From assembly GCA_050014075.1 (NCBI GenBank), contig JBEKEA010000004.1:35665-99664 (forward strand): 64,000 nucleotides of DNA. Reading direction: 5' to 3'. This document shows positions 2,704 through 36,558 of the stretch, one piece after another; position 1 is the first letter of the stretch, and every line of letters starts with the position of its first letter. This stretch comes from Sedimentisphaerales bacterium (GTDB taxonomy: Bacteria > Planctomycetota > Phycisphaerae > Sedimentisphaerales > UBA12454). The notes under the pieces were generated by a model. That model saw only the letters and a list, made by a program, of their open reading frames with translations. It made no database searches and was not told the origin of the DNA. Made by a program: the position numbers and the translations under genes.

Positions 2704-3667
2704 AGCAAGCGTGAAATATTCGGTTGTTGTGCCGCTGTATAACGAAGAGGCGGTAGTGCAGGAGCTTTATGAGCGTCTGACGCGAGTAATGAAACAGCTT
2801 GGCGGAAGCTATGAGCTTGTGCTTGTCGAAGACGGAAGCACAGACGCGACGATTGAGAAGCTAAAAGAGATTGCCGAGAAGGATGAGCATGTTGTAGTGG
2901 TCCAACTTCGGCGGAATTTCGGGCAGACGCCAGCGCTTGCGGCGGGATTCGATTGCTCGCGGGGCGAAGTGATAGTCAGTATGGATGGGGATTTGCAGCA
3001 TTTGCCGGAGGAGATACCGGCGTTCCTGGAAAAGATTGACGAGGGATATGACGTTGTCAGCGGATGGCGCGAGAAGCGGGTCGATAATCTTATTATGCGA
3101 AAGATACCGAGCAGGGCGGCGAACTGGCTGGCGTCGAAAATCAGCGGAGTGGATATTCATGATTTCGGCACGACGTTTAAGGCATACAAACGGCAGATAA
3201 TTCAGGATTTGCGGCTGTATGGCGAGATGCATCGATTTATACCGGCGCTTGTTTCGTCCAGCGGGGCGAAAATTATCGAAATACCAATCAAGAATATTGA
3301 AAGGCAGGCGGGCAAGAGCAATTACGGGATATCGCGGACGTTCAGGGTAGCATTTGATTTGATTACGTTGCGGTTTTTGCTGGGATATATTACGCGGCCG
3401 CTGCATTTTTTCGGCAAGGCAGCATTTTACTGCATTGTGACGGCGTGTCTGATTTTCGGTTATGTTCTTTTCGATAAATTTTATTTTAATGTTCCGATAT
3501 TTATAGCGCACGGGCCGCTGACGGCGGCGGGGATTAGTCTTTCGCTTATGGGTTTGATTTTTATTTCGACGGGATTGCTGGGCGAGATGATAAGCAGAGT
3601 TTATTTTGAGGCGACCGACAGAAAAATTTACGCGGTCAGAAAAATTTTCAGGAAACAAAGCAGGTAA
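2696..3667 (+). CDS. GT2 polyprenyl-phosphate glycosyltransferase (ArnC-like)
   Basis: SVVVPLYNEE, EDGSTD, RRNFGQTPA, MDGDLQH, two C-terminal TM helices. ATG at 2696 follows aggaag. Confidence 0.9.
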   Translation: MSEASVKYSVVVPLYNEEAVVQELYERLTRVMKQLGGSYELVLVEDGSTDATIEKLKEIAEKDEHVVVVQLRRNFGQTPALAAGFDCSRGEVIVSMDGDLQHLPEEIPAFLEKIDEGYDVVSGWREKRVDNLIMRKIPSRAANWLASKISGVDIHDFGTTFKAYKRQIIQDLRLYGEMHRFIPALVSSSGAKIIEIPIKNIERQAGKSNYGISRTFRVAFDLITLRFLLGYITRPLHFFGKAAFYCIVTACLIFGYVLFDKFYFNVPIFIAHGPLTAAGISLSLMGLIFISTGLLGEMISRVYFEATDRKIYAVRKIFRKQSR

Positions 3668-3676
3668 GGTGCAGGA

Positions 3677-4228
3677 ATGAAAAAAAAGAAAAGTCCAATT
3701 TTTGTATGGCTGTGGCTGATAGTAATAATTCTGTTTATAACCGGACTTGTGAAACATTTCAGTATAAAGAATTTCCAGGTGATAACGCCGGGTGTGCTTT
3801 ATACGAGCGGCCAGCCGCGGGGAATGGATTATACACGGTTATTATATAAGTATCATATCGCGACGTTTGTAAACCTTCGCAGCCCAAGCGAACATCGTGA
3901 AGCAAACTGGTATAGCGAGGAAACAGCGTGGATGAGGAGTAACGGCGCAAAATATATAGAACTGCCGGTGGAAAAAGATGTTCTTGACGACGGGATACCC
4001 AATACGGAGGCATCGCGTAAATTTCTGGAGATTATGAGCGACAGCGGCAATCTGCCGGTGCTTTTGCATGACAGCAGCGGCAAAAACAGGGTTTCATACC
4101 TGGCGTCGATATGGATGTTAAAGTCCGGCAATTTTACCCTGGAGCAGACGATAGAAAAGATTAAGAAAATAAAAAACCAGCCGCTAACGGAGCAGGAAAC
4201 GAATTTTGTGAAATCTCTTGCGCATTAG
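3677..4228 (+). CDS. Membrane-anchored dual-specificity/tyrosine phosphatase-fold protein, catalytic Cys replaced (HDSSGKNR)
   Basis: N-terminal TM; NF..ITPGVLYTSGQP; VNLR; P-loop PVLLHDSSGKNR versus canonical HCxxGxxR. Confidence 0.75.
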   Translation: MKKKKSPIFVWLWLIVIILFITGLVKHFSIKNFQVITPGVLYTSGQPRGMDYTRLLYKYHIATFVNLRSPSEHREANWYSEETAWMRSNGAKYIELPVEKDVLDDGIPNTEASRKFLEIMSDSGNLPVLLHDSSGKNRVSYLASIWMLKSGNFTLEQTIEKIKKIKNQPLTEQETNFVKSLAH

Positions 4229-4234
4229 GCAAGC

Positions 4235-5845
4235 TTAATTTTTGTGGAAGAGGGCTCCTTCGGTATCATTTGAACCGCTGCGTTCGGCAATTTGCTGATA
4301 AAAAACAGAATTAAACCTGCCATCTGCAATTAATTTTTTGTAGTCGTTGCCGGTAGCAATAATATACTGGCCGTCTTCATATTTTTTGTAAATCTCGGCA
4401 ATATCAGTGATTTTAGGAATGATTCTGCCTGTATAATGAATTGTGCGGGCAGAGGCGCCATTATAAGCGATAAGTTTTTCATTTGGGGCGACGATTTTGC
4501 CGATTTTCAACGCAAAAATTCTCGAAGGATTATTGTAATCCATCGGGACGAAAAAATAAGTAAAGAACATCATTATAATTGCGCAATAGCCGGCGAAAAG
4601 CAGAACAGTCGCGGCGATTTTGCGCTTTTGGACAAACAAAATAATCACAAGGGCGGCGATAATACAAAACATCAAAAAGATATGAATCGCGGGCCAGATA
4701 AAAGATTTTTCACTGGTTAGTGTCCAGTATATAAGTCCAATTACTCCGGCGGCAAAAACGATTGAATGGCCGGTAAAAAACAATTTAACATATTTAAGAC
4801 TGAAAACTCTATTCTCAAATATCATATCGTGCAGACAAATCGCGGCTAAAATAGAAAAAGCGGGAATTGCCGGCAGGATGTAGTGTTGGCGTTTTCCGCC
4901 GGAGATGCTCATAACCACAAGCTGTATAACTAACCATAACCACAGATACCCCATAACCGGCTTTTTTTTGTCCCAGATGGAACGGAAAGGCTCTATAACC
5001 GCGTGAGGCACAAAAGCGGAAAAAGGAGCGGTAAACACAAAGATAATTACCAGATAAAACCAGAACGGTTTTTGGCCTGAGGCGAAATCGCCCGCAAAGC
5101 GGTCAATGAATTCTCTTTTCCAGAAGGCAATGCTGCCGGTGGTTTTGGAGGCAATCATAAACAGCCAGGGCAGAACAATCAGAAGGAATAAAATCGTACC
5201 GATTATCGGCAGGGCGAGTTTTACTTTGTCCCATTTCCTGGAAATGGCGAAATAAAGAAAAATCGGCGGTGCAACAAGAGCCAGCGGAGCAGGACCTTTT
5301 GCGAGCATACCCAGGGAGAAACTAAGCCAGAAGACAAGCATATAGAGAACCTGCTGACGACGAGATTTTGACTCCATCGCGGTGTAAAAACTCATCATAG
5401 AAATGGTAACCAGCGAACAAAGCAGCATTTCGGGCCTGCCATTGTGCGAATATCTGATAAACCCCAGAGTTGAAATCCAAACGGCAGTTGAAAGAATCGC
5501 AATGGGAAACTGGAACCATTTGGCGGTGAAGAATAAAATAACCGCGGCAGAAAGAACGGCGGATGCAGCGCTTGGCAGACGAGTTGAAAACTCATCGACA
5601 GTGCCGGTAATTTTGGCAATAGAGGCGACAAGCCAATAGCTAAGCGGAGTTTTTTGCAGTCGCACCTGGCCGTTGAATTTGGGCAAAATCCAGTCACCGG
5701 TCTGGAGCATTTCTCTTGCGGTTACGGATACGAGGCACTCGTGATTGTCCAGCGGGCTATCAGAAAGCGTCCAAAAGGCAGCAACGACAGCATAAACCAT
5801 AACTGCGACAACCCAAAGAATCTTTGAGTTATTAGTTTCAATCAT
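4235..5845 (-). CDS. ArnT/GT83-like (GT-C) lipid-carrier-dependent glycosyltransferase
   Basis: HECLVSVTAREML..GDW..P..NG..RLQKTPL.YWL, LAKGP and KRQHYILP motifs; multiple TM helices. Confidence 0.85.
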   Translation of the reverse strand: MIETNNSKILWVVAVMVYAVVAAFWTLSDSPLDNHECLVSVTAREMLQTGDWILPKFNGQVRLQKTPLSYWLVASIAKITGTVDEFSTRLPSAASAVLSAAVILFFTAKWFQFPIAILSTAVWISTLGFIRYSHNGRPEMLLCSLVTISMMSFYTAMESKSRRQQVLYMLVFWLSFSLGMLAKGPAPLALVAPPIFLYFAISRKWDKVKLALPIIGTILFLLIVLPWLFMIASKTTGSIAFWKREFIDRFAGDFASGQKPFWFYLVIIFVFTAPFSAFVPHAVIEPFRSIWDKKKPVMGYLWLWLVIQLVVMSISGGKRQHYILPAIPAFSILAAICLHDMIFENRVFSLKYVKLFFTGHSIVFAAGVIGLIYWTLTSEKSFIWPAIHIFLMFCIIAALVIILFVQKRKIAATVLLFAGYCAIIMMFFTYFFVPMDYNNPSRIFALKIGKIVAPNEKLIAYNGASARTIHYTGRIIPKITDIAEIYKKYEDGQYIIATGNDYKKLIADGRFNSVFYQQIAERSGSNDTEGALFHKN

Positions 5846-5846
5846 A

Positions 5847-6572
5847 TTATTTTATCAAAATCCTTTTTGCTGTCAGGACGGCAGCAAAAGCAATTGCCGC
5901 CGTTTCAACTCTCAATATCGTATCGGTAAGTCTTACGGATTGCGCGTTAATTTTTTTCAGCATATTTTCTTCAGCTTCCGCCAGGCCGCCTTCAGGACCA
6001 ATGAAAGCTATTATATCATATTCATCGAGATTAAAAATTGTAATTGATTTAGCATCAGATGTCAAAGAACCGAAAATAATTTTAGCGCCTGGATAATCAG
6101 TTTTCAATTTTTCGAGTACATCTTTGAAATCCGCGGGTTTGTCGATTACAGGCAGAAATAACCTTTGACACTGTTTTGCCGATTCGAGAGCGATTGTATC
6201 GAGCCGTTGCTGCTGAATTGATTGCTTTGCAGTCCTTTCGAAAATGACAGGGACAATCCGGTCAACGCCTAATTCGGTACATTTTGCCACAAGCATCTCA
6301 AAACGCTCGCCTTTGGCAATACTGGACGCTATTATGATTCTGTTTTTTTGAGGTTTTGGATAATTTTTAGTATCTTTAATGGTCAGTCGGACAAGATTTT
6401 TTTCTATTTTGTCAATAACAGCCTGTGCGATAGTTCCGCTGCCGTCGAACAATTCGACAGAATCACCATTTTTTAGCCTGAGAACTTTTTTGAGGTGGCG
6501 AAACTGGTCGCCGGTAAGAACTGCGCCGGTGTCCTGATTAATCGTATTACAGAAAAATCTTGCCGTTCTCAT
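5847..6572 (-). CDS. rsmE: 16S rRNA m3U1498 methyltransferase
   Basis: HLKKVLRL, KCTELGVD, FIGPEGGL, ILRVETAA. Confidence 0.95.
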   Translation of the reverse strand: MRTARFFCNTINQDTGAVLTGDQFRHLKKVLRLKNGDSVELFDGSGTIAQAVIDKIEKNLVRLTIKDTKNYPKPQKNRIIIASSIAKGERFEMLVAKCTELGVDRIVPVIFERTAKQSIQQQRLDTIALESAKQCQRLFLPVIDKPADFKDVLEKLKTDYPGAKIIFGSLTSDAKSITIFNLDEYDIIAFIGPEGGLAEAEENMLKKINAQSVRLTDTILRVETAAIAFAAVLTAKRILIK

Positions 6573-19945: not shown

Positions 19946-20054
19946 TTTACGTCAGCTTAACTGACCAGTATGCGTGGTCAAGGAATTGTTTCCAGCTAGG
20001 ATACTTTTGACTGCTTAAATGGAGATGAACAGTCGGATTGCGTTTCGGTTTTAC
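19946..20054 (-). pseudogene. Diverged duplicate of the last 35 codons plus stop of the HNH gene
   Basis: 99/109 identical to 21889-21997; encodes [35 protein letters not shown]; an in-frame stop lies 5 codons upstream. Confidence 0.85.
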
Positions 20055-21861: not shown

Positions 21862-21889
21862 AAAACTCCTTTTTTATGAAAGAATATTT

Positions 21890-22525
21890 TTACGTCAACT
21901 CAACTGACCAATATGCGTGGTCGAGGAATTGTTTCCAGCTATGATACTTTTGAATGCTTAAATGCAGGTGAACGGTCGGATTGCGTTTTGGTTTTACCGG
22001 CAGCTTAACAAGAGTCATTCCGGCCTGCCTGGGCGTCCTGCCTCCTTTTCTGGCGTTGCAATCGGTACAGGCACAAACGAGATTTTCCCAGGATGCGGTC
22101 CCGCCGCTGCTTTTCGGAATGACATGGTCGAGGGATAGTTCGTTAGTGGGGAATTTTTTCCCGCAGTACTGGCATCGATTGGCGTCGCGGGCGAAAATGT
22201 TACGCCGGTTGAATTTGACTTCGTTTCTCGGCAGGCGGTCATAGAATAACAATCTGACTATTCGGGGCACAGCTATATGATAATTGACCGTTGAAATCCA
22301 GTCGTGTTCGTCAGGCTCGAAAGACCTTTTTATCTGGCTGACATCCCGCCAGCTTTCAAAATTGTAATTGTAATACTGGCCCTGTTCGTAGGATATGACT
22401 TCGGCAAGCTCCCTGCACAGCATACATAGCGCTCTTTTGACATCTATGATGCGCAAAGGCATATAGTACTTATTAAGGACAAGTACGTTACAACTCAAAC
22501 CAGATTGAGTTTCAATTAACGCCAT
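21890..22525 (-). CDS. HNH endonuclease (McrA-like)
   Basis: [17 protein letters not shown]...[16 protein letters not shown]...[12 protein letters not shown]. Confidence 0.9.
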
Positions 22526-27608: not shown

Positions 27609-28610
27609 TTAGCCATTCGCCTGAATGGCCGTTATCGCTACCGCCGCGACGATGTCATCGCTGTTGCAGCCGCGGGACAAATCATTTACCGGCTTTGCAA
27701 GGCCCTGCAAAATCGGGCCGTAGGCATTGAGGCCTGCAAGTCTTTCGGCCATTTTGTAGCAGATATTTCCTGCTCCCAAATCCGGGAAGATAAATACATT
27801 TGCCTGGCCTTTTAATGGGCTGTCAGGACATTTTTTCGCTGCTACCTTCGGCACAAAAGCAGAATCAAATTGTAATTCGCCGTCGATTAAATATTCGCCG
27901 CCAAATTCTTTGGCCAATTTTCCCTTCGCAAGTTCGGTTGCTTTAATGACTTTATCGGGGCCTGTGCCTTTGGCAGAGCCTTTTGTGGAATAGGAGAGCA
28001 TCGCGATTTTCGGAACGATGCCGAATTGTTTTGCGGTTCGAGCCGTCGCAAGAGTGATGTCGGCCAATTGCTCTGCGTCCGGGTCCTGGTTCAGGCCTGA
28101 ATCTGCAAACAGGATTGTCATTTTACTGTTCGTCATAAAGAACATACTCGAAACAGTTTCAATGCCTTTGGCGGCTTTTATAATTTGCAGGGCTGGGCGG
28201 ACGGTATCGGCTGTCGAATGAGTCGCTCCGGAGACAAGGCCATCAACTTCGCTGTTTTTTACCATCATCGTGCCGAAATAGACCATAGCTTGTATGGTTT
28301 TAAGAGCCGCTTCGGGTGTAACGCCTTTGTTTTTGCGAAGTTCATAGAATTGCTGGGAAAAATCTTTTAATTTATTGCTTGTTTGAGGATTGATGATTGC
28401 GATGTCGTTTGTTTTTGCTCCAATCTTTTTGAGTGCATCAGCGATTTGTTTTTCGTCGCCGAGAATTGTAAGCTTTGCCATTTTCAGCTCGGCGATTTTT
28501 TTTGCCGCTTCGATTGTCCGCTGGTCTCCGCCTTCCGGCAGGACGATATGTTTGAAAAGAGAGGTTGCTTTTTCAATTATCTGCTGTGAAAAATCTTTAT
28601 TTGTTTCCAT
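27609..28610 (-). CDS. pta: Phosphate acetyltransferase
   Basis: IVLPEGGD.R, SGATHSTADT.R, MLSYST.GS, DGELQFDSA, FIFPDL.AGNI.YK, QGLAKPVNDLSRG. Confidence 0.95.
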   Translation of the reverse strand: METNKDFSQQIIEKATSLFKHIVLPEGGDQRTIEAAKKIAELKMAKLTILGDEKQIADALKKIGAKTNDIAIINPQTSNKLKDFSQQFYELRKNKGVTPEAALKTIQAMVYFGTMMVKNSEVDGLVSGATHSTADTVRPALQIIKAAKGIETVSSMFFMTNSKMTILFADSGLNQDPDAEQLADITLATARTAKQFGIVPKIAMLSYSTKGSAKGTGPDKVIKATELAKGKLAKEFGGEYLIDGELQFDSAFVPKVAAKKCPDSPLKGQANVFIFPDLGAGNICYKMAERLAGLNAYGPILQGLAKPVNDLSRGCNSDDIVAAVAITAIQANG

Positions 28611-28653
28611 AGTTTTTTCTTTATAAAAATATTCTATTATTTAAACAACCGAA

Positions 28654-28727
28654 TGCGTCCGGCAGGAATCGAACCTGCAACCTCTGGCTTCGTAGGCCGG
28701 CACTCTATCCAGTTGAGCTACGGACGC
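28654..28727 (-). tRNA. tRNA-Arg (ACG)
   Basis: Cloverleaf: GCGTCCG/CGGACGC acceptor stem, GCTC D-stem, CT-ACG-AA loop, GCAGG-TTCGATT-CCTGC T-arm; CCA not encoded. Confidence 0.95.
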
Positions 28728-28801
28728 TTAATCGCAGTTATTCTATATTTTTAATATCGATTTTGCAAGGTGTAAAAAATCTTCAATCTTAAATTTTCAA
28801 T

Positions 28802-29092
28802 TTAGATACGGTGCATCATCTTGAAAATCTTTTCATCCTGAAAGGTAATTTTAAGTTTCATTTCCTGCCCGATTTTGTCCAGTCTCTTATGAATCTGAGG
28901 AATGCTGATTGCCGCCTTTGCGATATCGACGGCCATTGTCATAACAAAATAGTTTTCCATAATTTTCTGATTAACATCGACAATATTAATGTTTGCCTTT
29001 GCCATTGCGTTGGCAAGTTTAGCGATGATGCCTACTCTGTCTTTGCCGGTAACGGTTACTATGCAAATCTGAGATTGTTTTTTCGCGGCCAT
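28802..29092 (-). CDS. ACT-domain protein (UPF0237-like)
   Basis: IVTVTGKDRVGIIA, NINIVDVNQ, Q.EKIFKMMHRI. Confidence 0.85.
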   Translation of the reverse strand: MAAKKQSQICIVTVTGKDRVGIIAKLANAMAKANINIVDVNQKIMENYFVMTMAVDIAKAAISIPQIHKRLDKIGQEMKLKITFQDEKIFKMMHRI

Positions 29093-29107
29093 TGTTTATT
29101 CCTTAAA

Positions 29108-29851
29108 TTACCACTTAATATTAGTAAGCTTTTTCATTCCATTATAATCTGTCATATCGAATCCAAGCGAGGTAACGGTTATAAATCCCTCACTAATCGC
29201 CAGTGTATCGCTGGGCAGGTCTTTATCGCGGTGATATCCGCCCGAAAGCTGATAAAGTATTTGGCCTTTACCATTTTTCTCTTTAACAAAATGTTCATCG
29301 AAACCCATCGTTGATTGCGGCACGACTTTTATGCCTTTCGGCTCGCCGCGTGACAGGGCCGGGATATTAATATTTATCACGCCCCCGATACCTGCCGGCA
29401 GAAGTTTATTTATAACTTTGACGCAGTATTTTGCGGCGTTAGCGAAATCCGTCTGTTCTTCGCGGACTGCGCTCAGCGCGACGGACGGTATTTTAAAAAA
29501 CGCCGCCTCTATCGCTGCCGCCACTGTGCCGGAATAATAAACGTTAATGCCGACATTCGCGCCGTGATTTATGCCGCTGACGACAAGGTCGGGCTTCTTG
29601 GAGCAAATTTCCATAATTGCGATTTTAACGCAATCGGCGGGCGAACCGCTGACGCTGTATCCGCTGAATTGGCCTTCTACGTTTATTTTTTCGCAAATCA
29701 GCGGCTCGAATACCGTTATGCTGTGACCTGCGCCGCTCATCCTGTCGGAAGGCGCGACAACGGTTACATCGCCGAGTTTGCACAGCTCTTTATAGGCTGC
29801 TGCTATTCCCGGCGCTAAAATTCCGTCATCGTTTGTTAAAAGAATATTCAT
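29108..29851 (-). CDS. surE: 5'/3'-nucleotidase SurE
   Basis: MNILLTNDDGI.APG, SGAGHS, GSPADCV, VSGINHGAN, YSGTVAAA. Confidence 0.95.
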   Translation of the reverse strand: MNILLTNDDGILAPGIAAAYKELCKLGDVTVVAPSDRMSGAGHSITVFEPLICEKINVEGQFSGYSVSGSPADCVKIAIMEICSKKPDLVVSGINHGANVGINVYYSGTVAAAIEAAFFKIPSVALSAVREEQTDFANAAKYCVKVINKLLPAGIGGVININIPALSRGEPKGIKVVPQSTMGFDEHFVKEKNGKGQILYQLSGGYHRDKDLPSDTLAISEGFITVTSLGFDMTDYNGMKKLTNIKW

Positions 29852-29895
29852 ATCCGGTATGGTAACGTTAAATTTCAAATATTCAACAGTAAATC

Positions 29896-29944
29896 ATCCC
29901 GCACCTTCTTTTGATTCAATTTGAATGTTTAGAAGGTGCGGGAT
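29896..29944. repeat. 14-bp inverted-repeat element, copy 2
   Basis: Same arms as at 17818; 21-bp spacer containing the palindrome attcaa-t-ttgaat. Confidence 0.8.
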
Positions 29945-29978
29945 TGACGCTTAATCCGGCCGGAGTATAATCAATAAT

Positions 29979-30668
29979 ATGATAAGGAAATTTGACAGAC
30001 GCAAAGATTTGGTTTTGACTCGTCAGCAGGTTCGCGATTTCGACGCCTGGGCGATAAATACGGCCTGTGTGCCCGGCGTCGTGCTGATGGAGAACGCAGG
30101 TAGCGGCTGTGCGGAAATTGTCCTTGCGCAACTGGAAAAACCCGCCGGCTCAAAGGTCTGCGTTTTCTGCGGCCCAGGCAACAATGGCGGCGACGGGTTT
30201 GTAATCGCCCGGCATTTGAAAAATGCCGGCGTTGATGTTGCCATCGCTCTTTGCGGACCAGCCTCTAAAATTAAAGATGATGCTGAGGTTAATTATAAAA
30301 TTGTCCTTAATATGAAAATTGCGGTTGAAGAATTTGATACTGCATCTGCGAATATCGAAAAAGAAATCGAAACTTTCGCTGGTAACAGCGATTTGATTGT
30401 GGACGCGATTTTCGGCACCGGCCTGACAGGCGTGCTTCGGTATGATTTTGTCAGGCTTATCAATGCGATAAATTCGCTTAATAAACCTATTGTGGCGGTG
30501 GATATTCCTTCGGGACTCGATTGCGATACCGGCGAATCTTTAGGTGCCGCGATAAAAGCGGTATCGACAGTTACATTTGCCGCGGCAAAAAAGGGATTTT
30601 TAAATCCGCGCTCGGCCCAATTCATAGGCCAGGTTTATATCGCCTCTATCGGCATCGAACCCAGGTAA
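29979..30668 (+). CDS. nnrE: NAD(P)H-hydrate epimerase (YjeF N-terminal domain only)
   Basis: LMENAG, CGPGNNGGDG, VDAIFGTG, VDIPSG, TVTF...K.G. Confidence 0.92.
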   Translation: MIRKFDRRKDLVLTRQQVRDFDAWAINTACVPGVVLMENAGSGCAEIVLAQLEKPAGSKVCVFCGPGNNGGDGFVIARHLKNAGVDVAIALCGPASKIKDDAEVNYKIVLNMKIAVEEFDTASANIEKEIETFAGNSDLIVDAIFGTGLTGVLRYDFVRLINAINSLNKPIVAVDIPSGLDCDTGESLGAAIKAVSTVTFAAAKKGFLNPRSAQFIGQVYIASIGIEPR

Positions 30669-30673
30669 AATTA

Positions 30674-32368
30674 CTATTTCGCCTTTGTCTTTGCTGGTGC
30701 CGGAGCCGGTGTTTGCGGCTTTGGCTGGGCCGCTGGTTTTGTTTGCGTCTGCGCCGGTGTTTGAGTTTTTGCTTTTGTCTGTGTTTGCGGCTGTGACGTT
30801 AATCCGGAGGCTAATGATTCATATCCAATGAAGTTCAGAAATCTTTTCAGGCCGAATATGGGAATGTAAAGGTCTTTAGCCTGGTTTTTGACTTCCAGAT
30901 ATTTTTCTGACGCCTTGACCGAGGCATCGTATTTTTCGGCAGCCATTGGGTCGGCTTCTGTTTCATCAAGTGTCGGTTTTTTCTTTACCTGAGGCTGATC
31001 GCCGAGTATGACAAAATCCGTGTTAGTCGTTACTGTATCTTCAACTTTGCCGCCCCAGTTTTGAATCAATTGTTCTATTTTCGCTGCGCCGTCAGAGTCG
31101 ATTTCGCCGTCGCCGTTAAAATCAAAATCTCCCGCGACGACAAATCTGTTTGTCGCCTTGCTGTCCCAGATAAGATTGACGATTATATCGCCTTCCGAGA
31201 TTGGGTTCTTTTTGCTCATTTTATTAATTCTTGCCATCGAAGTATTTTTATCCACGTTGAGGACTTCTATTTCGTTCCCGCTGTTTCCGTCAGTTGGGAT
31301 AGGGGCGCTTTTGTTATATACGGAAAAAGTCAGGCCCGGATATACCTTGTCCTGGATTCCGATATCTATGAATGCCACCTTTGACGATATGTCGATTGAA
31401 ATTATATGCCCGTCAGGCTTATAGGCCGCGACATCTTCTTTCGGCTTGGACTTTGATACTTCTAATTTGCTCAGCGTCTCCTGTAATCTGTTTTGTGTGA
31501 CGGAAAGTTTGTTCATTGCATCGAGCAATTCCTGTTTGGATTTATTTTTTTCCTCGACTGACTGGTCCCGCTGCTGCGTAAGCGATTGGACCTGCTCGTT
31601 GCTTTTCTTGTCCATCAGGTCGCGAAGCTGATTATAGCTTTGCTGAACGCTGTTGGCGTCTTGCTGCACTGAACGAACCTGGGCCAGCAGCGAGCTTTCT
31701 CTTTCCGCAGCGCCTGTTTTGGACGTTTCCAATTCGCTGTTGAGATTGGCAATCTGCGTATTTAACTGACCGGCAGTCTCGTTCATCTGTCTGAGCTTAT
31801 TGTTATATATTTCAACTATTCTAAACAAACTCGGCGCGCTGTTAACATCTGTTACAGCAGCGGCCGTCGCCGGTGCATTTGTATTCGTTGCAGCGACCGT
31901 TGCCGGCTTATTGGCATCCGTTACAACGGCCTGTGCCGGCGCATTTACATCTGTTACAGCAGCAGGCGAGTTAGTCTCTGCTGCTGCCGGTGGCGGAACA
32001 AAACCCCTCTCAAGGCTTGCAACGATATCTTTATATTTTGTATCAAGCTCGACGAGCTTTGCTTCTGCGCTTGTTTCGCCAGGCTCGGTGCCGGTATCCA
32101 TCTTGTATATTTTGTTTATGTATCCGAGCAGTTGTCGTGTTCGGCTTGCCTTGCGTTCTTTTTGGCCGATAAGTGTGCCGACGTTTTGCACCTCAGATGA
32201 CGTGGCGAATTCTTCCTGATTCTGCTGAGATGTGAGGAATTGGTTTCGCCAGTCTTCGGATTTTATGTAAAAAAGAACCGCAAGAACCGCCGCCACGATA
32301 AAAAGACCGACAAATGTAATAACCGTATAAAGCATTACATTACGCTGTTCCTGTCGAGCAACTGCCAT
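30674..32368 (-). CDS. Membrane-anchored coiled-coil protein with C-terminal BRCT-like domain
   Basis: N-terminal TM, long coiled-coil, Ala/Thr/Pro repeats, I..WGGKV...V...TDFVILG segment, Q/P/T/K-rich tail. Confidence 0.6.
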   Translation of the reverse strand: MAVARQEQRNVMLYTVITFVGLFIVAAVLAVLFYIKSEDWRNQFLTSQQNQEEFATSSEVQNVGTLIGQKERKASRTRQLLGYINKIYKMDTGTEPGETSAEAKLVELDTKYKDIVASLERGFVPPPAAAETNSPAAVTDVNAPAQAVVTDANKPATVAATNTNAPATAAAVTDVNSAPSLFRIVEIYNNKLRQMNETAGQLNTQIANLNSELETSKTGAAERESSLLAQVRSVQQDANSVQQSYNQLRDLMDKKSNEQVQSLTQQRDQSVEEKNKSKQELLDAMNKLSVTQNRLQETLSKLEVSKSKPKEDVAAYKPDGHIISIDISSKVAFIDIGIQDKVYPGLTFSVYNKSAPIPTDGNSGNEIEVLNVDKNTSMARINKMSKKNPISEGDIIVNLIWDSKATNRFVVAGDFDFNGDGEIDSDGAAKIEQLIQNWGGKVEDTVTTNTDFVILGDQPQVKKKPTLDETEADPMAAEKYDASVKASEKYLEVKNQAKDLYIPIFGLKRFLNFIGYESLASGLTSQPQTQTKAKTQTPAQTQTKPAAQPKPQTPAPAPAKTKAK

Positions 32369-32539
32369 TTAAAATCTCCTGAAATTCCTGTTAAATCAAT
32401 TTAATTTCAATACTTATGTAAATTAACAATCATTCAATTATCGGCAAAAAGGGGGGCCAAGTCAACTAAAATCTTGCCTAAATTCACAAACTTCTCGTAG
32501 CATAAGTATCTTTAAGCCTGTATAGTTACGTTAGTTTTT

Positions 32540-32597
32540 ATAAGGATTTGATAATGGCTACTGAACGATTGCATAAAATACTTGCCGCGGCTGGGGT
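32540..32597 (+). pseudogene. Orphan copy 1 of the rluB RBS and first codons
   Basis: 49/58 identical to 33763-33820; encodes MATERLHKILAAAGV then diverges. Confidence 0.85.
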
Positions 32598-32701
32598 CTC
32601 CCCCTACGTGGGTTTGCGCTGTGGCTTCGACAGGCCGAGGGGCTAAATGACGGCTCAAAACCGTGAAAATTAGTGTTTTTTTGCTGTTTTTCACGATTAT
32701 G

Positions 32702-32735
32702 TTGACAAAAGCGTGAAGAATCATATACTATAATT
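32702..32735 (+). promoter_or_regulatory. Sigma70-type promoter abutting the Fic start codon
   Basis: TTGACA 32702-32707, TATACT 32724-32729, ATG at 32736, no SD. Confidence 0.55.
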
Positions 32736-33623
32736 ATGGCAAAAGTATTACATATTTTTAATACAATCAATCGCCTGAGAGAACGATATTATGCCGCATC
32801 TATCGGGAAGCAATCGCTTATAAAAATAATCAGTGAAGCGGAGATTGCCGAGCAGGTTTATAACTCCAATGCCATCGAGAACAGCACTCTTAGTCTTGAA
32901 GAAACAGAGAAAATCCTTTTACAAATAGACCTGGACAGATACATTTCGGAGCGGGAAATTTTTGAGGCGAAAAACTTGGCGCGTGTAGTTTCTTATATCG
33001 ATACAAAAGCCAAAGAACAGGAACTGACGCTTGATGTAATTCTGCTGCTTCATAAAATGCTTATATCGAATATCCGGGACGATGTTGCCGGAAGATTTCG
33101 CAAGGCTGGCGAGTATGTGCGCGTGGCCAACCATATAGCGCCGGGGCCGGAAGAAGTAACAGGCAGACTGGAAAAAATGCTTGCGGAGTATAACGCAAAC
33201 AGCCATGAAAATATTATAAAACGCATCGCGATGCTGCATCTTACCTTTGAACAGACGCACCCATTTGTTGATGGTAATGGCCGTATCGGAAGAGTAATAA
33301 ACAATTATTTGCTTATACGAGAAGGTTTTGTGCCTGTGAATATTAAATTCATTGACAGGGAGATGTATTACGAGGCGTTTAAGGAGTTTAACGAAAAAGG
33401 CACTGCAAAAATAATGGAGGAAATAGTCGGCAAAGCGATTACAAATAGTTATCACAAAAGGCTTGCATATCTGGAAGGCTCGCAGATTATGACGCTTGCC
33501 GAATATGCAAAAAAGTATAAAATATCACACTCAAACTTGATAAATAAGGCAAATCGCCAAACCATAGAGGCTTTTCTTGAAAAAGGCGTTTGGAAGATTG
33601 GCGTAATGCAGAATAAAAAATAA
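32736..33623 (+). CDS. Fic-domain protein (AMPylase family)
   Basis: HPFVDGNGRIGR catalytic motif; N-terminal SNAIEN inhibitory motif (class II arrangement); short HTH-like tail. Confidence 0.93.
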   Translation: MAKVLHIFNTINRLRERYYAASIGKQSLIKIISEAEIAEQVYNSNAIENSTLSLEETEKILLQIDLDRYISEREIFEAKNLARVVSYIDTKAKEQELTLDVILLLHKMLISNIRDDVAGRFRKAGEYVRVANHIAPGPEEVTGRLEKMLAEYNANSHENIIKRIAMLHLTFEQTHPFVDGNGRIGRVINNYLLIREGFVPVNIKFIDREMYYEAFKEFNEKGTAKIMEEIVGKAITNSYHKRLAYLEGSQIMTLAEYAKKYKISHSNLINKANRQTIEAFLEKGVWKIGVMQNKK

Positions 33624-33661
33624 AACGAACTCCGTCATGCGGAGATGACGGGGCTAAACAA

Positions 33662-33694
33662 ATAAGGACAGGAATATGACGACAGAACGATTGC
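33662..33694 (+). pseudogene. Degenerate copy 2 of the rluB start
   Basis: ataagga...atg acg aca gaa cga ttg (MTTERL), followed by scrambled gctgcggc and gctggggt pieces. Confidence 0.5.
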
Positions 33695-33776
33695 CCTCAG
33701 CAGTTTCTTTTGCTGCGGCGAAGAAACTAAACGCTGGGGTAATCGAAATTGATTAATATCATATAAGGATATGATT

Positions 33777-34568
33777 ATGGTTATGGAACGATTACATAAA
33801 ATACTTGCTGCGGCGGGGATTGATTCGCGGCGGAATTGCGAACAGCTTATTTTGCAAGGCTCGGTAAGGGTCAACGGCAAAGTTGTGGATACATTGCCGG
33901 CCTTTGCGGACATTGACAGAGACGTTATTGTTGTTGACGGCAGGAAGATACATTCGGTCAAAAAGGTTTATTATCTGTTCAATAAGCCCAAAGGCGTTAT
34001 CTGCACAAACGACGACCCGCAAGGCAGGAGAAAAGCGATTGATTTTATTGATACCGACCAGCGGATTTTTTGTGCCGGCAGGCTCGAAGCCGATACTACC
34101 GGCGCGATAGTTTTGACCAACGATTCGGCTCTTGCCGACCGTTTAACGCATCCGCGTTATTGTCTTGAAAAGACTTATTTAGTTGAAATCAGGGGCAGGA
34201 TAACAGCGGAGATTATTGAGAAGTTTAAAAAAGGTATGTGGTTTTCGGAAGGCAGGAGTGCGCCGGCGAAGTTAAAGGTTTTAAAATCATCTGAAAAGGA
34301 GTCTGTGATTGAGGTTAGAATTGGGCAGAGCCTTAACAGGCAGATTCAAAGGATTATGGCGCGGTTAGATTACAAAGTGATGGCGATTAAGAGAACGCAT
34401 ATCGGTAATATTTCTTTGCATCGGCTCGGCGTTGGCGATTACAGGCCGCTGACGGAAAATGAGATTGAATATTTGAAAAAGGAAAATCGGGCGGAAACGC
34501 CTATGGTGCCTGCGGGCGGACATTTTAGAAAAAAACGAATAAAAACTCATAGAAATTCTAAATTTTGA
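33777..34568 (+). CDS. rluB: RsuA/RluB-family pseudouridine synthase (catalytic motif reads GRLE)
   Basis: S4 domain ERLHKILAAAG..SRR..E; NKPKGV, GRLEADTTG, LTND, HPRY..EKTY. Confidence 0.85.
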   Translation: MVMERLHKILAAAGIDSRRNCEQLILQGSVRVNGKVVDTLPAFADIDRDVIVVDGRKIHSVKKVYYLFNKPKGVICTNDDPQGRRKAIDFIDTDQRIFCAGRLEADTTGAIVLTNDSALADRLTHPRYCLEKTYLVEIRGRITAEIIEKFKKGMWFSEGRSAPAKLKVLKSSEKESVIEVRIGQSLNRQIQRIMARLDYKVMAIKRTHIGNISLHRLGVGDYRPLTENEIEYLKKENRAETPMVPAGGHFRKKRIKTHRNSKF

Positions 34569-34649: not shown

Positions 34650-34814
34650 ATGACTGATAATGTAAAAAAAATTCAATTATCCAAAGAATCTTCTGGGCAG
34701 AATAATCAAAAAGGCAGTGGAGAAAAACGCAGCGGCATAGACCGCAGAAAATTTTCCTTTGGTTACCAGGGCCCCGAACGCAGAAAAATCAAAGACCGAA
34801 GAAGTCAAGGATAA
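34650..34814 (+). CDS. Small (54-aa) Arg-rich protein with KR...DRR / YQGPERR...DRR motifs
   Basis: Manual translation: MTDNVKKIQLSKESSGQNNQKGSGEKRSGIDRRKFSFGYQGPERRKIKDRRSQG*; ggag precedes the ATG; below the ORF-track cutoff. Confidence 0.65.
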   Translation: MTDNVKKIQLSKESSGQNNQKGSGEKRSGIDRRKFSFGYQGPERRKIKDRRSQG

Positions 34815-34885
34815 TCAGCCGGGGCAAATTATTTTCAACTGCCGAGATGACGAACTAATCAATCTAATACACGAAAGGCCCGTTT

Positions 34886-35755
34886 GTGAAAAGATTATCG
34901 TTAATTATCATAATCGTCACTATGCTTATTTCATCGATATGTAATATAACTTTCGCCCAGGACGACCTCAAAATCTGGAACGAATTCGTCGAAGCCGTCA
35001 AAAATGACCAAATAACAGCTGATAGAATTCGCACTTATGACAATTTGCCGAAAGATATGCTCCTGCAATGGAGCAAAATGTTTAAAGAGGGAAAACTTTG
35101 GGAGCAAATCCAGGGGACGCCGGAAGTTTACAAGGTTGGCAAGCACATACATTACATTGTTACATTCGCCAAGGACGATTGGAAAAGCACCTTCTGTCAC
35201 ACATTCCTTGTCGAAGATGGCAAATGGTATTTTCGTCACCTGGAAAATATAACCATTCGTCTCGACAAAATACCGGTGCCGCCGACTTCAAAGTTTCCTG
35301 ATTTGCCGGAAGAGAAAAAAGCCTGGCAACGGCAGGAAATTTACTGGACTGAGCAGGTGCGACTATTCAATTTCCTTGCTAAGGAAAAAGGGAAAGATTT
35401 TGCATTCAACTGGTTCAAAGACGGCGATGGGTATTTGATGGCGGCCAAAACATGGGTGCCTTTCTATCCGCCGGAAAAGGCCTTTATCCTGTATTCGTGC
35501 TGGGAACAGGCAAACTTGAGAGGAAACAAAGTTACGCTGGAAAAATTCGATAGTAATGATGCTGTAGTGCGAATCAAACCAATATATTTGCAGCTCTACA
35601 AACAGACGGGACATCTGAAGACGCAGATTTCTTTCGAAGACTACCGTCGAATTTTTGAAACTATCTGGCAGGACAGGGCAACTAAAGCAGGTTGGAATCT
35701 TGATATTACATATAACGATGATGAATGCCTGTTTAACTTTCATCGGAAGAAATAA
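34886..35755 (+). CDS. Secreted hypothetical protein
   Basis: GTG start after gaaagg; signal-peptide-like N-terminus; no family recognised. Confidence 0.65.
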   Translation: MKRLSLIIIIVTMLISSICNITFAQDDLKIWNEFVEAVKNDQITADRIRTYDNLPKDMLLQWSKMFKEGKLWEQIQGTPEVYKVGKHIHYIVTFAKDDWKSTFCHTFLVEDGKWYFRHLENITIRLDKIPVPPTSKFPDLPEEKKAWQRQEIYWTEQVRLFNFLAKEKGKDFAFNWFKDGDGYLMAAKTWVPFYPPEKAFILYSCWEQANLRGNKVTLEKFDSNDAVVRIKPIYLQLYKQTGHLKTQISFEDYRRIFETIWQDRATKAGWNLDITYNDDECLFNFHRKK

Positions 35756-35790
35756 AGCCTAACAGGTTCAGAGCAACGAGTTTTTTATCA

Positions 35791-36558
35791 TCAGTTGAAT
35801 TCGGCGACGAGCGGTGTGTGGTCGCTGGGCTTTTCGAGTTCGCGAGGTTTTTTATCGATGCTGCAACCGGTGCATTTTTTTGCTATCGGCTCTGAACCCA
35901 TAATGTAATCAAGCCGCCAGCCGCGATTTCTTTTAAGGCCGTTCGGTTCACGATAATCCCAGAACGTAAACTGGCCGGGCTCGGAGCAGTGCTTTCTGAA
36001 AAGGTCAACGAAACCCCAATCCATAAACTTTTTTAAAGTTTGTGAAAGGCCGCGATTAAAACAGACTGTGCCATCGAGAACGGCAGGGTCGTAAACATCC
36101 TTTGCCTCAAAAGCGATATTGAAATCTCCTGTCCATAACAATTTATCAGTCGGCTTGAAATGTTTATTAAAATACTCAAGCAGTCTTTTGAGCCAGTTGA
36201 GTTTGTATTGATATTTTTCGGATTCCATCTCGAAGCCCTGCGGAATATAGGTATTAACGATTGTAATGCCGCCTGTGCTGGCTGTTATCATTCTTGCTTC
36301 GTCTTTCGGCTCGCTGTCGAGGCCGAATTCGACGGAGGCGAATTTGTGTTTGCTGAAGATTGCGACGCCGTTATAGCTTTTTTCGCCTTTGAAGACAAAT
36401 TCATAGCCTGTTTTTGCAAAAGCATCGGAGGGAAAATCTTTGTCCTGAACCTTTGTCTCCTGCACGCAGAGAATATCAGGTTTGTTTTCGGCCAGCCAGT
36501 TTACGATTATCTCTTGTCTGGCCCTTATCGAATTAGCGTTAAAAGTTGCGACTTTCAT
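35791..36558 (-). CDS. xth: Exodeoxyribonuclease III
   Basis: ATFNANSIRAR, LCVQETK, YNGVAI, GDFNIA, GWRLDY, SDHTP. Confidence 0.95.
   Translation of the reverse strand: MKVATFNANSIRARQEIIVNWLAENKPDILCVQETKVQDKDFPSDAFAKTGYEFVFKGEKSYNGVAIFSKHKFASVEFGLDSEPKDEARMITASTGGITIVNTYIPQGFEMESEKYQYKLNWLKRLLEYFNKHFKPTDKLLWTGDFNIAFEAKDVYDPAVLDGTVCFNRGLSQTLKKFMDWGFVDLFRKHCSEPGQFTFWDYREPNGLKRNRGWRLDYIMGSEPIAKKCTGCSIDKKPRELEKPSDHTPLVAEFN

Follow-up and report, generated by a model that had tools for sequence, protein, structure and literature searches.

Three copies of the rluB start around a Fic gene at an insertion hotspot in a Sedimentisphaerales bacterium

SXT/R391 elements insert in the 5′ end of prfC, and ICESt1 and CIME elements accrete in tandem at fda, with the end of the target gene restored. 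Here we compare with these and other systems a locus from a Sedimentisphaerales bacterium of the Phycisphaerae (contig JBEKEA010000004.1), in which the start of rluB, a gene for a 23S rRNA pseudouridine synthase, is present three times around a gene for a Fic protein. The whole 64,000-nucleotide (nt) stretch of DNA that was analysed is referred to below as the window, and DNA inserted at the locus as an island. The rluB locus resembles SXT/R391 and ICESt1/CIME insertions in its direct repeats of the target gene end, in the supply of a new 5′ end and in the nested or tandem arrangement that results when a site is reused; by analogy, the element would probably supply expression signals too. It differs from them in that none of the three islands was found to contain an integrase, the left joints vary, and the island in the window measures only 1.2 kb.

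A second comparison is with homology-facilitated illegitimate recombination (HFIR), which has been invoked to explain stacked orphan gene ends at Rhs and type VI secretion system (T6SS) loci (PMC5361080). In the C-terminal displacement of Rhs and contact-dependent inhibition (CDI) genes and in the T6SS effector-immunity arrays of Vibrio cholerae, the likeness to rluB consists in a homology anchor in a conserved gene joined to an illegitimate other end, in a displaced gene end kept as a relic, in the stacking of relics by repeated events, and in the lack of need for a dedicated recombinase (PMC5361080). Those cases displace 3′ toxin ends together with immunity genes, whereas at rluB it is the 5′ end of a housekeeping gene, comprising the ribosome-binding site (RBS) and 6-15 codons, that is displaced, and the cargo is of defence type; the mechanism was deduced there, as it is here (PMC5361080). 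Finally, repetitive extragenic palindromic (REP) sequences flank genes for REP-associated tyrosine transposases (RAYTs) in inverted orientation (PMC3116915, PMC5581495). The sister locus L033 is similar to these systems in having a Y1 transposase gene between inverted palindromic repeats with a conserved head, TTAG, and compensatory changes; in our case, however, the hairpins are found in the islands only and are not dispersed in the 64-kb window, whose own copies are weak matches.

A repeat search of the window returned a single family bearing the rluB RBS and first codons, with three copies on the + strand at 32539-32595 (copy 1), 33661-33717 (copy 2; 61% identity to copy 1) and 33762-33818 (copy 3; 86% identity to copy 1, 49/57). 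All three have a common register of AAGGA, 7 nt, ATG, two codons and GAACGATT, and they encode the peptides MATERLHKILAAAGV (ATG 32554), MTTERL (ATG 33676) and MVMERLHKILAAAGI (ATG 33777), respectively. Copies 1 and 3 were the sole matches in 64 kb to a 23-nt degenerate start pattern, which had no match in 100 shuffles, and they contain a perfect 14-nt core, CATAAAATACTTGC, with mismatches on either side. Copy 2 matches copy 1 at 25 of 35 positions and ranks third in the whole window with both strands searched; its score of 25 exceeds the best match of each of 200 shuffled windows (maximum 24). The three-fold repeat described in a preliminary description of this DNA is thus not due to chance. 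The limits of the copies needed some revision. Copy 1, with RBS and codons 1-15, extends to 32598 (32539..32598, + strand), and the working start of rluB is most likely ATG 33777 rather than 33771; the former is the start chosen by the gene callers of three other assemblies, whose 263-aa product is identical. Copy 3 (33762..33821, + strand) forms the RBS and codons 1-15 of this working gene (33777..34568, + strand), which is intact and encodes S4 and PseudoU_synth_2 domains (Pfam).

Relatives of the locus were collected through a scan of species-representative genomes, a scan of metagenome contigs and the 90%-identity RluB cluster. In five of the loci (L007, L035, L036, L037 and L038) the site is empty, and a homologue of a gene for a 564-aa protein and a conserved intergenic region of ~185 nt lead directly into rluB. 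In the window this upstream neighbour lies at 30674..32368 on the - strand; it is found next to rluB in all relatives (homologues of 553-573 aa), and its region is collinear with L007, L033, L035 and L036 at 88-92% nt identity. The native intergenic region of the window (32369..32538, + strand) is kept in the empty-site genomes, contains a weak promoter-like site at 32483-32512 and probably holds the ancestral rluB promoter. Window positions 27619-32598 align unbroken with L007 1113-6045, copy 1 being contiguous with native upstream DNA. The copy 1 peptide MATERLHKILAAAGV is identical to the first 15 RluB residues in L007 and five further RluB cluster members, and 5 of 45 nt differ between copy 1 and the L007 start. 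Because the upstream region of the empty sites runs on into a start with the same 15 residues, copy 1 can be identified as the ancestral start of rluB. Some 1.2 kb (32599 to ~33821), with a substitute RBS and 15 codons at its end, was inserted after codon 15.

Five segments of the insert lie between the relic in copy 1 and the working start. Its left edge, W1 (32599..32649, + strand), is a REP-like element running from a C-run to GGGGCTAAATG. The Fic module (32650..33623, + strand) follows and leads into W2 (33624..33660, + strand), a REP-like hairpin (stem 33630-33653) whose tail, GGGGCTAAAC, abuts the RBS of copy 2. Copy 2 itself consists of an RBS and codons 1-6 (33661..33694, + strand), and W3 (33695..33761, + strand), made up of a strong hairpin at 33694-33740 (fold z = -3.9), a tail, GGGGTAATCG, and a spacer, begins exactly at the end of the copy 2 match to rluB. 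The preliminary description was right that a decayed second copy is present, but this is a short copy, of RBS and six codons, followed by another hairpin, and not a longer decayed one. The junction of W2 and copy 2 resembles the REP-tail/RBS/start junction of the working start in L033 (37/51, hand alignment), so copy 2 was probably once a working start in an L033-like arrangement. As a relic of that kind, it would be the remnant of an intermediate start, and W3 would be the sole remainder of a second insert. The successive start-restoring insertions proposed earlier are supported in this form: they appear nested, with copy 2 cut at codon 6/7 by a second, hairpin-bearing insert.

Both relics retain RBS and ATG, from which mini-open reading frames (mini-ORFs) open; that of copy 1 has 30 codons and ends at 32646, and that of copy 2 has 26 codons and runs to 33756. 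Since a promoter scan found no promoter-like site between Fic and copy 3, and the hairpins in W2 and W3 lack a U-tract, transcription of rluB now probably starts either at the Fic promoter or at the native one in front of copy 1. An Rfam scan of 32300-34000 matched no known RNA family.

The same site is occupied by different DNA in other relatives. In L008 (RluB 68% identical) an 868-nt insert with a mechanosensitive-channel gene as its only gene lies ~20 nt before the ATG. L026 (RluB 93%) has that channel gene, a 66-aa ORF and more cargo, and its contig stops before the left border. In L033 (RluB 95%) a 4.2-kb island holds a MazG-like gene, a gene whose 800-aa helicase-S24 product has matches to three defence models (Nhi, AbiO and PDC-S41), and an intact gene for a 150-aa Y1 (HUH) transposase; the left border of this island lies ~75 nt upstream of the ancestral ATG (~32484 in window terms), and no relic rluB start is left there. 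With the Fic-bearing window, one empty and four occupied states of the site were therefore observed, and the contents of the islands are unrelated apart from hairpins. The locus is thus not invariant among relatives, a possibility raised in the preliminary description, and its reading as a reused insertion hotspot is borne out: the site is a hotspot for variable, mostly defence-type cargo in this clade of Phycisphaerae. Other differences between these genomes were seen nearby: a 289-aa gene at 34886-35755 with no Pfam hit (region 34803-35795) is absent from L007, L033 and L035, and in L036-L038 the exonuclease gene is followed by two additional genes, NosD/beta-helix and DUF1266 (L036 8730-11859).

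To establish the soundness of the assembly, we used exact-protein look-ups, which found same-strain contigs (L001-L006) in three other assemblies (JGI 3300038451, ENA ERZ27250059 and Logan SRR13021960), all of them 100% identical to the window. No single contig of these assemblies spans the region, and all breaks fall between 32508 and 33616: contigs end and restart at 32539/32644 (JGI), 32981/32841 (ENA) and 32508/33616 (Logan). The JGI contig end at 32539 is the exact first base of copy 1. These breaks, together with the abundance in metagenomes of Fic copies of 85-98% identity, are what would be expected if a Fic repeat common to many genomes had been wrongly joined into the locus. However, each of the two junctions is present on independent contigs whose flanks are unique. 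The left one is covered by L004, which extends from the upstream genes across copy 1 and W1 and ends in Fic; the right one is covered by L001 (from 32644) and L002, which start in Fic, cross W2, copy 2, W3 and copy 3, and reach rluB. The overlap of L004 with L001 measures 338 nt and has 0 mismatches, whereas other Fic alleles differ by 2-15%, and together these two contigs tile the whole structure. In addition, copies 2 and 3 share one contig in every assembly, and copy 1 is followed by non-rluB DNA whatever the status of Fic. An assembly artefact is therefore very improbable. The simplest explanation of the breaks is that the Fic module is a repeat common to many genomes in metagenomes, but they could also come from occupied and empty alleles in the population.

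The Fic module is made up of an inverted repeat, CAAAACCGTGAAAA / TTTTCACGATTATG, at 32656-32701, a promoter-like site (TTGACA-16-TATACT, 32702-32729) just 3′ of it, and an ORF at 32736-33623 that encodes a 295-aa protein (Pfam Fic, E = 1.5e-22). The protein carries both motifs by which class II Fic proteins are defined within one chain, HxFx(D/E)GNGRxxR and an N-terminal (S/T)xxxE(G/N), here as HPFVDGNGRIGR and SNAIEN. Because SNAIEN aligns with the inhibitory motif TVAIEG of human FICD, we assign it to class II. The inverted repeat is kept with the module in all contexts examined and is probably an operator, perhaps for the HTH-like C-terminus of the Fic protein. Earlier claims that a class II Fic gene with its own promoter lies between copies 1 and 2 hold; the hairpin after it, in contrast, does not belong to the Fic module and resembles the REP hairpins of L033.

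Relatives of this Fic protein number in the thousands and reach 85-98% protein identity in Phycisphaerae, Omnitrophota, Brocadiaceae and Pseudomonadota. DNA identity of 84-94% to four unrelated contexts is limited to the interval from 32650/32654 through 33601/33622, so that the DNA-conserved unit includes only the ORF, its promoter and the operator-like inverted repeat. The module is mobile and moves between phyla. In L058 a Fic homologue is located between hsdS and hsdR of a type I restriction-modification (R-M) operon (3879-6194), in L039-L048 and L057 it lies 3′ of DNA methyltransferase genes, and what remains of an hsdR start lies directly behind Fic in L049 (MNKAETRAELIDPKL... at 3892-4053) and in L057 (MNEAETRAELI... 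at ~3900-3960). The hsdR codons that Fic often carries along are a further case of a gene-start relic moving with cargo. These contexts point to type I R-M loci, between hsdS and hsdR, as the origin of the module. The window protein is like the Fic proteins of type I R-M loci, SoFic and PDC-S04 in its class II type, intact HPFVDGNGRIGR and N-terminal inhibitory motif, and it matches the PADLOC models PDC-S04 (1.7e-34) and SoFic (1.5e-26); it differs in being a solitary module with its own promoter away from R-M genes. The module is therefore a self-contained, widely transferred unit of defence type, with a defence role that is predicted.

How the islands entered can be approached through their left joints, which lie at four places: -75 (L033), -20 (L008), codon 6/7 (copy 2) and codon 15 (copy 1). 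They have no target motif in common, and the expectation of a common crossover near codons 13-15 was consequently not upheld. Three of them read GGGGTC/TCCCCC (copy 1), GATTGC/CCTCAGC (copy 2) and AAATTA/CCCCGCC (left border of the L033 island); each starts at the C-rich foot of a hairpin, and their visible ambiguity is 1-2 nt at most. The bases that precede them (GGTC, TTGC, ATTA) have nothing in common, so that no fixed tetra- or pentanucleotide target of the IS200/IS605 kind is seen.

Within rluB, the first 42 nt are 20-27% diverged among the window (33777-33821), L033 (7001-7045) and L026 (1493-1537), compared with 4-5% in the rest of the gene (p = 1e-3 to 1e-6). The differences stop at nt 42, and codon 15 (ATT) and codons 18-19 of the window copy are common to L033 and L026; empty-site genomes show no contrast between rluB start and the rest of the gene. 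The flanks appear to have differing histories. Quartet sites group the window with L033 in ratios of 49:38:25 upstream (44% support); the rluB body gives 24:2:3 and the downstream DNA 98:30:21 and 62:13:20 (66-83% support). Because these genomes are mosaics along their whole length, their local identity varying from 80 to 97%, this discordance is suggestive and no proof. A mosaic test along rluB against L033 and L035 gave an identity fluctuation too large to place a crossover.

A second, unrelated duplicated gene end lies in the window, as the preliminary description had noted. The last 36 codons of an HNH endonuclease gene (21890-22525, - strand) are duplicated with 91% identity at 19946-20054 and 21889-21997. 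The relic has an intact reading frame and begins 1 nt past the stop of a native neighbour, an NAD(P)H-hydrate dehydratase gene. An EF-hand/dockerin-like gene and a flavodoxin-like gene occupy the 1.9 kb that separate the copies. There was no recombinase-family match in the four ORFs scanned, apart from the fact that the duplicated gene encodes an HNH endonuclease, and REP-like hairpins were not seen either. As an unrelated second gene end duplicated with no such match, the HNH case, together with rluB, points to a general host process.

In light of these observations, the reading that we favour, which we hold tentatively and at slightly less than an even chance, is that the three rluB starts are scars of two nested insertions produced by homology-anchored recombination of rluB-linked island DNA, of the HFIR or Campbell type. 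The incoming DNA would be rluB-linked island DNA of related strains, and would on that account carry its own rluB RBS and first codons at its end. Its right end would recombine homologously inside rluB, while its left end would be closed illegitimately, with no homology involved; the earlier event would have placed this joint at codon 6/7 and the later event after codon 15. A circularised fragment integrating by a single crossover would leave the same picture, and single-crossover events are known to duplicate the homologous segment (PMC3240628). Since only events leaving rluB intact would have survived, the old start would have become a relic and the incoming start the working one. The present cargo would be a Fic module derived from type I R-M loci and lying between REP-like hairpins inherited from the island. 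While the anatomy of the locus, its ancestral state, its nature as a hotspot and the mobility of the Fic module are shown here, it is the enzymology and the order of events that we infer in this account.

Homology-anchored recombination is favoured because no integrase was found in three islands, because the left joints are scattered and lack a target, and because of the HNH case and the differing flank histories. On the first of these points, Fic is the only gene in the window island (Pfam), so that the earlier statement that no integrase is left there is correct; no tyrosine or serine recombinase is present among the called genes of the complete 4.2-kb L033 island; and none was seen in the visible part of L026, where the left part is missing and only some ORFs were scanned. 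The Y1 gene of L033 is the only recombinase seen in any island. Several observations weigh against homology-anchored recombination. Classical HFIR usually yields an insertion with a deletion and 3-10 bp of microhomology at the joint (PMC3240628), whereas here there is a duplication in place of a deletion and a joint ambiguity of ≤1-2 nt; and in mosaic genomes the discordance of the flanks falls short of proof. Furthermore, the sharp divergence boundary near codon 15 in the window, L033 and L026 fits a site-specific process, and the perfect 14-nt core CATAAAATACTTGC would also fit an att site. These last two could be reconciled with homology-anchored recombination only by the extra assumption that later exchanges between relic and working copy were confined to the duplicated 15 codons.

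The boundary and the core are also what an integrative element would leave. On this explanation, an element with a tyrosine or serine recombinase and an attP containing the rluB 5′ end integrated twice by tandem accretion, after which the recombinase and most of the element were deleted, or a remnant was mobilised in trans in the manner of a CIME. In its favour, the insert lies between direct repeats of the target gene end (copies 1 and 3, 49/57), rluB is restored, the 14-nt core lies within an 86%-identical 57-nt repeat, and the break of all short-read assemblies at the locus could reflect occupied and empty alleles. The breaks are, however, also explained by Fic as a cross-genome metagenome repeat, no integrase is present in the window island, the complete L033 island or the visible part of L026, the island contents are unrelated save for hairpins, the left joints differ, and the HNH duplication likewise occurs with no recombinase nearby. 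We consider such an element unlikely. A tRNA gene as integration target was rejected, the sole one (28654-28727) being far from the site.

Turning from the joints to the hairpins, the 64 kb contain just two exact copies of the 9-mer GGGGCTAAA, both on one strand and one on either side of Fic. A further copy lies in the L026 island, which also contains the 11-mer GGGGCTAAATG, at 292. W2 folds with z = -3.0 (hairpin 33630-33653), and W1 folds no better than shuffles (z = -0.26). The combination of a hairpin with GGG[CT]TAA is found only in the rluB-linked islands of the window, L026 and L033, a motif search of the remaining window and the empty-site loci having returned none. The possibility that W1 is a decayed hsdS 3′ end moving with Fic, suggested by GAGGGG at an equal distance from the module in L039, was set aside. 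Because GGGGCTAAATG is common to the L026 island, which has no Fic, W1 is kept here as what may be island DNA rather than an hsdS remnant. Integron-like cassettes were likewise set aside, since the hairpin tails (GCTAAAC) fit an attC core poorly and no IntI was seen, with no formal search made.

The Y1 gene of L033 lies immediately upstream of rluB and has HVH and YIQ motifs (Pfam Y1_Tnp, 37.1 bits against a cut-off of 23), with REPs in inverted orientation around it at 6271(+) and 6354/6863(-). Its protein scores 30.8 bits against the cut-off of 80 for NCBIfam REP_Tyr_transpos, and is below the NCBIfam cut-offs for RAYT and IS200; JGI labels its homologues RayT. The same repeat, TTAG followed by a 7-bp CCCC-stem, surrounds Y1 genes in two further lineages (L059-L068 and L069-L071), and across the three lineages it has 100% pairing with three covarying pairs. 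A covariance model of the repeat recovers the copies around Y1 genes with E values as low as 1e-13. The top match of this model in the window is W2, a weak one (11.9 bits, E = 0.26); W1 and W3 were not found, and L026 gave nothing. The window hairpins are like those of L033 in their TTTAGCCCC head and their position beside an RBS. Because the covariance model has no significant match in the window, W1-W3 are described as REP-like by head sequence, shape and position, and their membership of the REP family is putative. No further REP copies were found in the 64-kb window or in the flanks of related loci.

The left flank of a RAYT-like Y1 gene is constant in L059-L068 (JGI metagenomes 33000312xx-33000316xx) and consists of HAD and HIT genes; the Y1 gene is followed by a REP array with a sample-dependent copy number and then by cargo that differs between samples, including the PADLOC candidate pair PDC-M34A/B (HEPN_Swt1 and DUF5343). 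A short repeat, ATCCGCGAAATCCGCGGTTAAAT, is present in the window at 1299-1351 and 1453-1505; its reverse complement resembles TTTAATCGCGGATTTCGCGGATT beside the REP array in the L059-L063 loci (L060 ~3400-3500), and the two may represent a second small-repeat family.

These hairpins and the L033 gene raise the possibility that a RAYT-like Y1 (HUH) transposase made the joints by single-strand cleavage and joining. Cleavage would take place at REP feet and at the REP-tail-like rluB codons 13-16 (GCGGGG-ATTGAT), and hairpin-bounded segments would move with the adjacent rluB start. This would fit the intact Y1 gene with inverted REPs directly upstream of rluB in L033, the conservation of the REP family around Y1 genes in three lineages, the three joints that start at the C-rich foot of a hairpin, the restriction of the GGG[CT]TAA hairpins to rluB-linked islands, and the variable defence cargo that adjoins Y1 loci in another lineage. 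On the other hand, the window hairpins score poorly in the REP model, the 64-kb window has no Y1 gene, there is no common tetranucleotide before the joints, and the HNH gene end was duplicated without such hairpins. Nor were duplicated gene starts found in the L033 and L026 islands or beside other Y1 loci, including L069, and we know of no REP/RAYT or IS200/IS605 system that duplicates flanking DNA. Transposase-made joints are therefore quite unlikely. The homology-anchored, integrase and Y1 models all yield one topology, of relic start, insert and working start, and we assign the probability left over from the readings discussed here to something not considered.

The preliminary description had proposed an undescribed gene-terminus-replacing capture route, and this we do not sustain. 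A duplicated target-gene end around an island is a normal footprint of integrative elements and is also left by HFIR or a single crossover (PMC5361080, PMC3240628), so that the footprint reported here is one of known processes at the 5′ end of a housekeeping gene. What is new is a well-resolved example, and the finding that variable defence cargo is associated with REP-like hairpins and a RAYT-like transposase. A literature search on RAYT-associated hotspots returned nothing directly relevant.

The locus provides a clean, datable case of cargo gain beside a housekeeping gene with no visible integrase. With two cases in 64 kb, relic gene starts and ends may be a general footprint of homology-anchored gene gain; if so, a search for relic ends in metagenome-assembled genomes could reveal which acquisitions are recent and in which direction they went. 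That a RAYT-like transposase with REP arrays lies beside variable defence cargo in three lineages is worth a systematic survey. It is a long shot that RAYT-like Y1 transposases and REP hairpins mark and help to build defence-cassette hotspots in Phycisphaerae, capturing cargo beside a housekeeping gene together with its start; if this were true, domesticated RAYTs would have a role in cassette capture.

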